This document shows, one piece after another, positions 37,061 through 38,090 of a DNA stretch of 43,696 nt (position 1 is its first letter; each line of letters begins with the position of its first letter). Source of the stretch: a virus (Duplodnaviria; Heunggongvirae; Uroviricota; Caudoviricetes); IMG/VR virus record IMGVR_UViG_2870490042_000005. One strand, written 5' to 3'. Position numbers and translations under genes: made by a program. Below the pieces are notes generated by a model. It had not been told where the DNA came from. It made no database searches and saw only the letters and a program-made list of their open reading frames with translations.

Positions 37061-37287
37061 GACCTCTCTTCTCTAACTAAGGCACCGAACTAAGAAAAGT
37101 TTGGTGTTTTCTCTTGCCATAATAACTAAGTTAAGTTAGATTTTATATCAAAGATAACGAACAGGCAGGACGCCCACGAAGTAGCCGCCTGGGGCATATG
37201 AAGTCCAGGATGATTCGTTAGCAACAAAAAAGCGCCCTACAGGACGCTTAGCTCTTTAACAATCTGGATATCCACAACAGTAGCAAT

Positions 37288-37779
37288 CTACAGATTGCCG
37301 TTAAGTTTTCTGGCCAACTCCTCAATGGATGGAGGCGATACGTAATCCGGATTTTTATTCATCAGAAACTTATTTTCACAGTGGAGGCACCTGCTTTTAT
37401 GAAAAAGCTCATCTTCGCTAACCGGGAATGGTTGAAGTATCGATACTATCTTTTGTCCAAAACATTTTGGGCAAAGATGCATGGTTATGCTGTCACCGTT
37501 CACGATTACCTCCTTCGAGTATACAAAAGTACCCGACTCAAGTTGGTTAAGGATATAGCCTTCCGTCTGAGCCTCAAAGTTTTCGAATTCTGCAATTTTA
37601 GCTTTGAGAGAAGCATTTATTTCTTGATAAGAGCCCAGCAGTTCAACGAGAGACACGCATTCGCGCTGAATAGACGCAAGCTTTGAGTTCAGCTCACCAA
37701 TAGCCGCATTTACTTCAGCTTGAGTTTTTGCCTCGTTCATTAGTTTTGCAATCTGGGCGATTTCACGAATAGCCGTCAT
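37288..37779 (-). CDS. Hypothetical coiled-coil protein with C-terminal CxxC…CxxC zinc ribbon
   Basis: Minus-strand ORF convergent with cI; start taken at ATG 37779 (MTAIREIAQIAKLMNEAKTQ…); CPKC-x21-CLHC. Confidence 0.5.
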   Translation of the reverse strand: MTAIREIAQIAKLMNEAKTQAEVNAAIGELNSKLASIQRECVSLVELLGSYQEINASLKAKIAEFENFEAQTEGYILNQLESGTFVYSKEVIVNGDSITMHLCPKCFGQKIVSILQPFPVSEDELFHKSRCLHCENKFLMNKNPDYVSPPSIEELARKLNGNL

Positions 37780-37817
37780 TGCTGCCGTTAATTCAGCGAT
37801 CACATTGAATACTCTTA

Positions 37818-37863
37818 TTGTTGTTGGGGATATCCAGATTAACCGAATCCTTGTTGTTGGGGA
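37818..37863. repeat. Direct repeat TTGTTGTTGGGGA x2 upstream of the zinc-ribbon gene
   Basis: Two 13-bp copies at 37818..37830 and 37851..37863. Confidence 0.6.
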
Positions 37864-38090
37864 ATAACCAGGTCCACCTCGCCTGATGTGGCTAAAAGCA
37901 GGCACATAACAGCTAAGTATTTTCAACCAGAGAGAATCCTTAGCGTTGTGGTGAATGCGGCTCAGCGCACGCGGGTTAAGGTTGAGGCTGACAGTCGACC
38001 TTCTGTGGATACCCACCCGCCTGGTGTGCAACCTTCGCCAGGCACCGGGAGGCACCCGGCACCACAACTTTATGCTGTGTGTAGTCCTGG

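Follow-up and report, generated by a model that had tools for sequence, protein, structure and literature searches.

A gene convergent with cI in a lambdoid Escherichia coli prophage very likely encodes a divergent member of the Rip1 family

Introduction

What is encoded by the lone gene that faces the repressor gene cI in the lambdoid Escherichia coli prophage of IMG/VR record IMGVR_UViG_2870490042_000005? The whole 43 696 nt record, here called the window, was analysed, and the 1.3 kb around the gene is 100% identical to many complete E. coli chromosomes. The initial annotation of this region correctly described a single minus-strand gene convergent with cI (37288–37803 on the minus strand; cI, 36434–37060 on the plus strand). 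It recognised no family for the product and guessed that the gene serves a prophage-expressed exclusion or defence function. Here, we find that there is a family, Rip1, which corresponds to phrog_1244. The gene product is very likely a divergent member of it, and the protein probably works as a Rip1-type defence, given its likeness to a characterised relative.

37288–37803, minus strand: gene assigned to the Rip1 family; 171 aa, GTG start, stop codon at 37288–37290; annotated by the Prokaryotic Genome Annotation Pipeline (PGAP) as coding sequence WP_000559916.1, 'hypothetical protein'

Similarity to Rip1

Prophages encode the anti-phage protein Rip1, short for 'ring interacting pore 1' (Patel et al. 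2026, Nature 651:1060–1067, as presented in the review PMC13434031), and a meeting report and a 2026 Nature Communications paper carry the same description in their passages on it (PMC12908700, PMC13601566). In the review's account, the first Rip1 came from a Pseudomonas aeruginosa prophage with its gene lying between those for the small and the large terminase, Rip1 alone is not toxic, and escape mutations map to the portal in Pseudomonas phages and to the small terminase in E. coli phages. Cryo-electron microscopy (cryo-EM) is described there as revealing 12 Rip1 subunits around an 11-mer small-terminase ring, with the C-terminal half of Rip1 touching the ring and the N-terminal amphipathic helices lining a pore. 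The complex makes liposomes leak dye and perforates cells, and relatives of Rip1 are widespread in Proteobacteria, mostly in prophages, according to the same source (PMC13434031).

The profile- and structure-based homology searches that the initial annotation had proposed matched the window protein to Rip1 by sequence, by profile and by fold. When the protein was used to query all PDB chains with phmmer, the only real match was the Rip1 chain of entry 9oox (E 6.3e-7, residues 8–150), which is titled 'Cryo-EM structure of the Escherichia phage HK446 Rip1 in complex with the Enterobacteria phage T6 small terminase'. A profile built from 31 homologues of the window protein returned the same chain with an E-value of 4.7e-19 (positions 5–155). 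Foldseek comparison of an AlphaFold2 model with the PDB placed chains 9oox_L (E 7e-7) and 9oox_M (E 1e-6) at ranks 1 and 2, each with a probability of 1.00, and the next match had an E-value of 0.2. The template modelling scores on the target were 0.53 for 9oox_L and 0.73 for 9oox_M over 120 columns. The CxxC...CxxC of the window protein aligns with LCAQC...RCHRC of HK446 Rip1.

The same family was reached through phage orthologue groups. The window protein belongs to phrog_1244, 'unknown function' in PHROGs (E 2e-59), as do HkaP of phage HK620 (E 8e-51) and gp30 of the Pseudomonas phage JBD30 (E 3e-61). In BLASTP comparisons, the window protein was 30% identical to HkaP (E 2e-21 over 160 residues) and 29% identical to JBD30 gp30 (E 1e-19). 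A profile search of 1.84 billion representative proteins returned 2581 relatives at E-values of at most 1e-3, and thus the Rip1-type family is large. A protein scan of viral contigs recovered mainly near-identical loci and added little diversity.

Searches of Pfam, NCBIfam and PADLOC (2023) with the window protein returned only sub-threshold coiled-coil or zinc-ribbon noise. As the genuine HK446 Rip1 is likewise without a match in these three libraries, their silence is no evidence against the assignment. The window protein agrees with Rip1 in sequence, in size and architecture, in fold, in the CxxC...CxxC motif and in being the product of a stand-alone prophage gene opposed to the flanking lytic genes. 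Since Rip1 is an experimentally characterised anti-phage protein of prophages, this homology agrees with the initial guess of exclusion or defence by a prophage-expressed gene.

Features of the protein

The open reading frame (ORF) on the minus strand spans 37288–38067 in the ORF list, and the start codon kept among the aligned homologues is the GTG at 37803, giving an N-terminus of MIAEL. The AlphaFold2 model, made from the 31 homologues, has a predicted local distance difference test score of 90.2 and consists of helices at residues 2–24 and 28–79 followed by a beta-rich domain at residues 84–150. The cysteines lie in CPKC (111–114) and CLHC (139–142), and all four (C111, C114, C139 and C142) are invariant in the 31 homologues. 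While the four-cysteine motif was borne out, the spacer between its halves is 24 residues rather than the 21 given previously. The motif is a putative zinc ribbon.

The first helix is amphipathic, with a hydrophobic moment of up to 0.52, and no transmembrane segment was found in the protein. Among the 31 homologues, which range down to 40% identity, 16 columns are invariant, the four cysteines included. In the family alignment, hypervariability is seen in the C-terminal tail and in the residues separating one CxxC pair from the other.

The ORF is present at 90% nucleotide identity or more in 649 of the 5426 complete E. coli genomes searched, and is full length in 644 of these. Carriers of the protein include O157:H7 and carbapenem-resistant clinical lineages.

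Position relative to cI and the early-left unit

The placement of the gene was judged from the following features:

36434–37060, plus strand: cI-like repressor gene; 208 aa, HTH_3 and Peptidase_S24 domains, PGAP 'LexA family protein'
37079–37110, plus strand: terminator of the cI transcript; fold of -15.1 kcal/mol, z -4.5, followed by UUUUCUCUU
37114–37142, plus strand: predicted early-left promoter (PL) from a promoter scan, TTGCCA-17-TAGATT, antisense through the rip1-like gene
37125–37139: operator-like site ACTAAGTTAAGTTAG, overlapping the predicted early-left promoter
37224–37249, minus strand: intrinsic terminator of the rip1-like gene from a terminator scan (which gave 37249 to 37230), AAGCGTCCTGTAGGGCGCTT then TTTTTTG; fold of -11.5 kcal/mol, kept in homologous loci
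37251–37262, plus strand: boxA-like GCTCTTTAACAA, in the PL sense about 100 nt past the predicted PL; the sole match in the window at no more than one mismatch

The motif CTAAG-N4-CTTAG, allowing one mismatch, occurs at only three places in the window. Two of them, 36348 and 36397, are in the region between cI and cro, and the third, at 37125, is 65 bp past the cI stop codon. Promoter and motif scans found no promoter-like or operator-like site between the rip1-like gene and yfdP. As the operator- and promoter-like sites lie between cI and the gene, the leftward operator and promoter (OL/PL) are most likely found here, judging from these motifs, and the gene would be antisense within the early-left transcription unit. 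In lambda, the promoter PRM serves cI and rexAB together, and rexAB is situated between cI and OL/PL. The description of the gene as being in a rex-like position was consequently only loosely right, because the presumed OL/PL separates it from cI.

Comparison of the locus across prophages revealed that the homologues in a Citrobacter prophage (L008) and a Klebsiella prophage (L011) are convergent with cI too. In L008, TTGACA-16-CATAAT is found in the spacer that separates cI from the rip1 homologue, and reads into the latter. In L011, an 18 nt sequence is common to the cI-cro region and the spacer between cI and rip1, in the manner of operator repeats. Both layouts match that of the window though the repressors differ. 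A Salmonella homologue (L005) directly follows cro in the rightward operon, in antisense orientation, and stand-alone homologues were found in prophages of Salmonella, Citrobacter and Klebsiella and in a Rac-like prophage.

The first 11 bases of the boxA-like GCTCTTTAACAA are identical to the boxA of the annotated nutL of HK620, and we regard the stretch at 37251–37262 as a candidate nutL boxA with a putative function. It is within the conserved 3' flank of the cassette described below, and in Salmonella L005 this module is just downstream of cro, at the place expected for nutR. The PL-sense leader (37143–37310) has an undistinctive fold (z -1.45) in which no put- or boxB-like structure can be claimed, and no N-like gene was recognised in the window.

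Several further observations concern the presumed early-left strand. A 101 aa ORF at 37381–37686 on the plus strand is wholly antisense within the rip1-like gene and would be covered by the presumed PL transcript; a shadow ORF is the likeliest explanation for it. On the presumed PL-sense strand, positions 37915–38138, located between the rip1 leader and yfdP, match the Rfam small RNA family STnc100 below threshold (40.3 bits against a gathering score of 47, E 1.3e-6). This stretch ends in an intrinsic terminator at approximately 38089–38137 on the plus strand (GGCGGTACCAG-N19-CTGGTACCGTCC-TTTTTTG, -23.3 kcal/mol, z -3.9). Early-left transcripts would thus need antitermination to reach yfdP across this strong terminator. 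PGAP places a 'frameshifted hypothetical protein' over 37948–38259. In the early-left region of the Rac-like E. coli prophage (L013), four RNA-family matches are clustered at 3211–3680 on the minus strand, 320–790 nt upstream of a further rip1 homologue, which is encoded on the other strand. C4 antisense RNA and isrK are above their gathering scores in this cluster, and STnc100 and DicF are below theirs.

Leader and direct repeats

Upstream of the gene is a leader that is more conserved than the ORF itself:

37804–37910, minus strand: leader, about 107 nt
37851–37863: direct repeat 1, distal from the start codon; TTGTTGTTGGGGA on the plus strand, TCCCCAACAACAA in the gene sense, exact match
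37838–37843, minus strand: -10-like hexamer GTTAAT (gene sense) between the repeats, read by eye from aligned leaders; candidate promoter element
37818–37830: direct repeat 2, proximal; TTGTTGTTGGGGA on the plus strand, CCCCAACAACAA in the gene sense, ending 15 nt upstream of the GTG

Read in the gene sense, the leader consists of the hairpin sequence GCCTG-N13-CAGGC (37881–37903), TCCCCAACAACAA, the -10-like hexamer, GGATAT, CCCCAACAACAA, AAGAG and the start codon. The second repeat is therefore just upstream of AAGAG, a Shine-Dalgarno-like element. The two 13 bp direct repeats reported earlier are indeed present: TTGTTGTTGGGGA occurs exactly twice, 33 bp apart from start to start, and there is no third exact copy in the window. 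A chance origin is excluded mainly by conservation, as homologous loci from many genera retain the two copies. The hexamer between them is GATAAT in L011 and L016, TATAAT in L013 and TAAAAT in HK620 and HK446, and a consensus scan found no convincing -35 element for the rip1-like gene.

Comparison of four homologous loci with the window revealed leader identities of 82–87% at widely differing protein identities. The Salmonella homologue shares 74% protein and 86% leader identity with the window, and the corresponding values are 59% and 86% for Citrobacter, 49% and 87% for Klebsiella and 42% and 82% for the Rac-like E. coli prophage. Over the same set, ORF nucleotide identity goes from 81% down to 67%. 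HK446 rip1 and HK620 hkaP encode proteins that are approximately 27% identical, yet the 140 nt upstream of the two genes are almost identical. This second form, here called the type-B leader, shares the hairpin sequence with the window leader, but where the window has its repeats, it carries another one, ACCCCTACAGyrA, twice. The two copies thus differ in concert from one leader type to the other, which suggests that their pairing matters.

The conservation of the leader is at the level of sequence. RNAalifold analysis of 16 leaders produced an invariant 5 bp stem only, with no compensatory pairs, which lends no support to a structured RNA; Rfam has no family for the leader. The C/A-rich repeats were also considered as an anti-small RNA of the AgvB/AsxR kind, and this was rejected as those small RNAs sit at the PR' moron site and not here. 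A link of the repeats to GcvB or Hfq is speculation.

An inverted repeat and a cargo slot

The gene is flanked by a 19 nt inverted repeat, for which 0.02 matches would be expected by chance:

37822–37840, plus strand: 5' arm, TGTTGGGGATATCCAGATT; with the 3' arm it flanks the ORF
37261–37279, minus strand: 3' arm, TGTTGTGGATATCCAGATT in the minus-strand reading, between the stop codon and the terminator; near-perfect complement of the 5' arm

The leader was found in 12 genera when one genome per species was scanned for exact pattern matches, and it is present in 1422 of 5426 complete E. coli genomes. In eight loci of the 12-genus scan it precedes a Rip1 homologue; one of these is a pseudogene, and one encodes a protein sharing only 30% identity with that of the window. 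In four others, from Atlantibacter, Sodalis, Pseudescherichia and Rahnella, it precedes a Pro-rich peptide of 32–37 aa and a protein of 151–159 aa with two transmembrane segments (phrog_6315). Two E. coli strains have other cargos in the same locus between cI and yfdP: in LD39-1 the leader is followed by an ECs1072-family protein, and in Rb-3 by an LprI-like secreted protein. The junctions in Rb-3 are exactly at AATCTGGAT and ATCCAGATT, which are the two arms of the inverted repeat. The 3' module, (GGATAT)CCAGATTGTTAAAGAGC plus the terminator, follows other cargos too. The region thus behaves as a cargo slot with conserved ends.

An empty slot, which would be a perfect palindrome AATCTGGATATCCAGATT with no cargo, was found in none of 40 records sampled from the 1456 matching E. 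coli records. The alternative cargos (phrog_6315, ECs1072-family and LprI-like) had no match in PADLOC, and are candidate lysogeny-expressed or defence genes.

Taken together, these observations allow a wider reading that we hold only tentatively and consider less likely than not to be right in full. The leader of about 107 nt and the 3' module (CCAGATT, which is the reverse complement of boxA, then the terminator) may form a portable slot that is bounded by the repeats; in many lambdoid prophages of enterobacteria, this slot would lie within an early operon, antisense to it and immediately past a nut-type boxA. Its cargos, swapped and expressed in lysogeny, would include Rip1 alleles of 30–99% identity, the two-transmembrane protein with its Pro-rich peptide, the ECs1072-family protein and the LprI-like protein. 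Read-through of the early operon on induction might silence the cargo and so protect the prophage from it, and the paired repeats might be host-factor binding sites or a C/A-rich translational or Hfq element controlling the slot.

Prophage setting

In E. coli strain 190, the element adjoins a tRNA-Thr gene and proA, and the integrase gene is at the end of the element. In the window, the rightward early genes are on the minus strand and include a Cro-like gene (36136–36336), ymfL, an O-like gene and others. The plus-strand genes from 38274 on are yfdP, yfdQ, yfdR, yfdT, a small helix-turn-helix gene and the integrase gene. Just past the last of these is a tRNA gene (42256–42328, minus strand), which is the tRNA-Thr gene beside proA in the identical chromosome and is probably the prophage attachment site. 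At the other end of the window, positions 2483–2599 on the minus strand match the Rfam ALIL pseudoknot (120 bits). The ALIL pseudoknot is a programmed-frameshift element of IS3-family transposases, and the match therefore points to an insertion sequence in the left part of the window.

Comparison with known systems

The closest characterised relative is Rip1 of HK446, a protein of approximately 165 aa that also has N-terminal amphipathic helices and a C-terminal beta domain with CxxC...CxxC. Like the window gene, HK446 rip1 is prophage-borne and antisense in the early-left operon, and the hairpin sequence and a pair of repeats recur in its leader. However, the two proteins are only about 28% identical, the repeat is CCCCAACAACAA in the window but CCCCTACAGyrA in HK446, and the window protein has a longer C-terminal tail (residues 150–171). 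In HK446, the antisense rip1 gene comes after N and before cIII, whereas the window gene is directly after the presumed PL and boxA and is convergent with cI.

HkaP of HK620 and HK630 is likewise a phrog_1244 protein with 30% identity to the window protein, encoded antisense between N/hkaQ and cIII, but hkaP has a type-B leader and another 3' flank. In HK620 it is annotated as a 'putative superinfection exclusion protein', and a literature search for hkaP found no experimental characterisation. The corresponding gene of the Pseudomonas casadabanviruses (JBD30 gp30, D3112 orf25 and its counterpart in DMS3) encodes a phrog_1244 protein with 29% identity and is also antisense to the flanking lytic genes. 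JBD30 gp30 is between the same two genes, those for the small and large terminase, that the review gives as the place of rip1 in the part describing the first example (PMC13434031). In contrast to the window gene, it is part of the late (packaging) region in a Mu-like phage, and it lacks a leader of the enterobacterial type.

Lambda RexAB resembles the proposed function in being a prophage-encoded abortive infection system near cI that ends in membrane permeabilisation. However, it comprises two genes co-transcribed with cI, and RexB is a multi-pass membrane channel, while the window has one protein of a soluble type, encoded on the opposite strand past the presumed OL/PL. The window protein had no match to RexA or RexB in Pfam, PHROGs or PADLOC, and no hydrophobic transmembrane segment.

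Proposed mechanism and alternatives

By homology to the characterised Rip1, the gene would specify a single-protein, prophage-borne abortive-infection defence. The lysogen would make the protein, which would be harmless by itself. Once a second phage has infected the cell and its oligomeric, ring-forming morphogenesis proteins (small terminase or portal) are being made, about 12 subunits would dock around such a ring by their C-terminal zinc-ribbon/beta domains, and the N-terminal amphipathic helices would then build a pore in the inner membrane. The cell would be killed or lysed ahead of the maturation of progeny. With its own leader and terminator, the gene may be transcribed while PL is repressed, and convergent transcription from PL on induction of the prophage would probably dampen it, sparing the prophage's own rings.

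Several points weigh against this proposal. Identity to any characterised Rip1 is only 28–30%, and because of this neither the trigger (small terminase, portal or another ring) nor the range of phages affected can be predicted. The details that define the Rip1 family are taken from a review, a meeting report and the title of a PDB entry. A consensus scan found no sigma-70 promoter for the gene, and that read-through from PL would silence it is something we purely infer.

The low identity would also suit a protein that is a Rip1 homologue by descent but has another function, as a superinfection-exclusion or regulatory factor acting on a target that is not a ring, or as a helper of the prophage's own lysis or packaging. 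Its target could have shifted, as the segment between the CxxC pairs and the C-terminal tail are hypervariable, and the HK620 relative is annotated only as a putative exclusion protein. Against this, the whole architecture of helices, beta domain and four cysteines has been kept over approximately 150 residues, the genomic setting and leader are like those of the characterised HK446 gene, and variation in the C-terminal half is what would be expected of a sensor surface in an arms race. We therefore consider such a change of function unlikely. A gene that has lost its function altogether, as a decaying or silent moron, is a still less probable explanation. No promoter has been confidently identified, and some relatives have been cut down or become pseudogenes (L024 and many partial entries, for example), but the ORF is intact in the 644 E. 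coli genomes noted above, the 16 columns have stayed invariant in homologues as little as 40% identical, and leader and terminator are conserved.

The proximity to cI, the four-cysteine ribbon and the direct repeats on either side of a -10-like hexamer might instead suggest that the zinc-ribbon protein binds nucleic acid and regulates the immunity region, for instance as an antirepressor or transcription factor with the repeats as its own binding sites. Homology to a known phage regulatory protein had been named at the outset as a finding that would tell against a defence role, and we found no similarity to regulatory families in Pfam, NCBIfam or PHROGs. Moreover, the same leader and repeats precede unrelated cargos (the two-transmembrane, ECs1072-family and LprI-like proteins), and so the repeats cannot be sites specific to the Rip1-like protein. 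Homologues are also found between the terminase genes of Pseudomonas Mu-like phages, and a regulator of this kind is extremely improbable. Defence of the Rip1 type is the reading that we prefer.

Implications

What is new here is a divergent allele; the mechanism of Rip1 itself was published in 2026, and relatives in prophages are common according to the review. The leader and inverted-repeat slot may or may not have been described elsewhere already. If it is a genuine expression module, it provides a search handle for more prophage cargo genes.

A probable function can now be assigned to a RefSeq 'hypothetical protein' that is present in approximately 12% of complete E. coli genomes and that Pfam, NCBIfam and PADLOC v2 all overlook. 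For phage therapy and the prediction of phage-host interactions, a widespread Rip1 allele is a relevant resistance determinant. With an identity of 28–30% and a hypervariable C-terminal sensor region, it is also a useful natural variant for studying how the recognition of rings is tuned.

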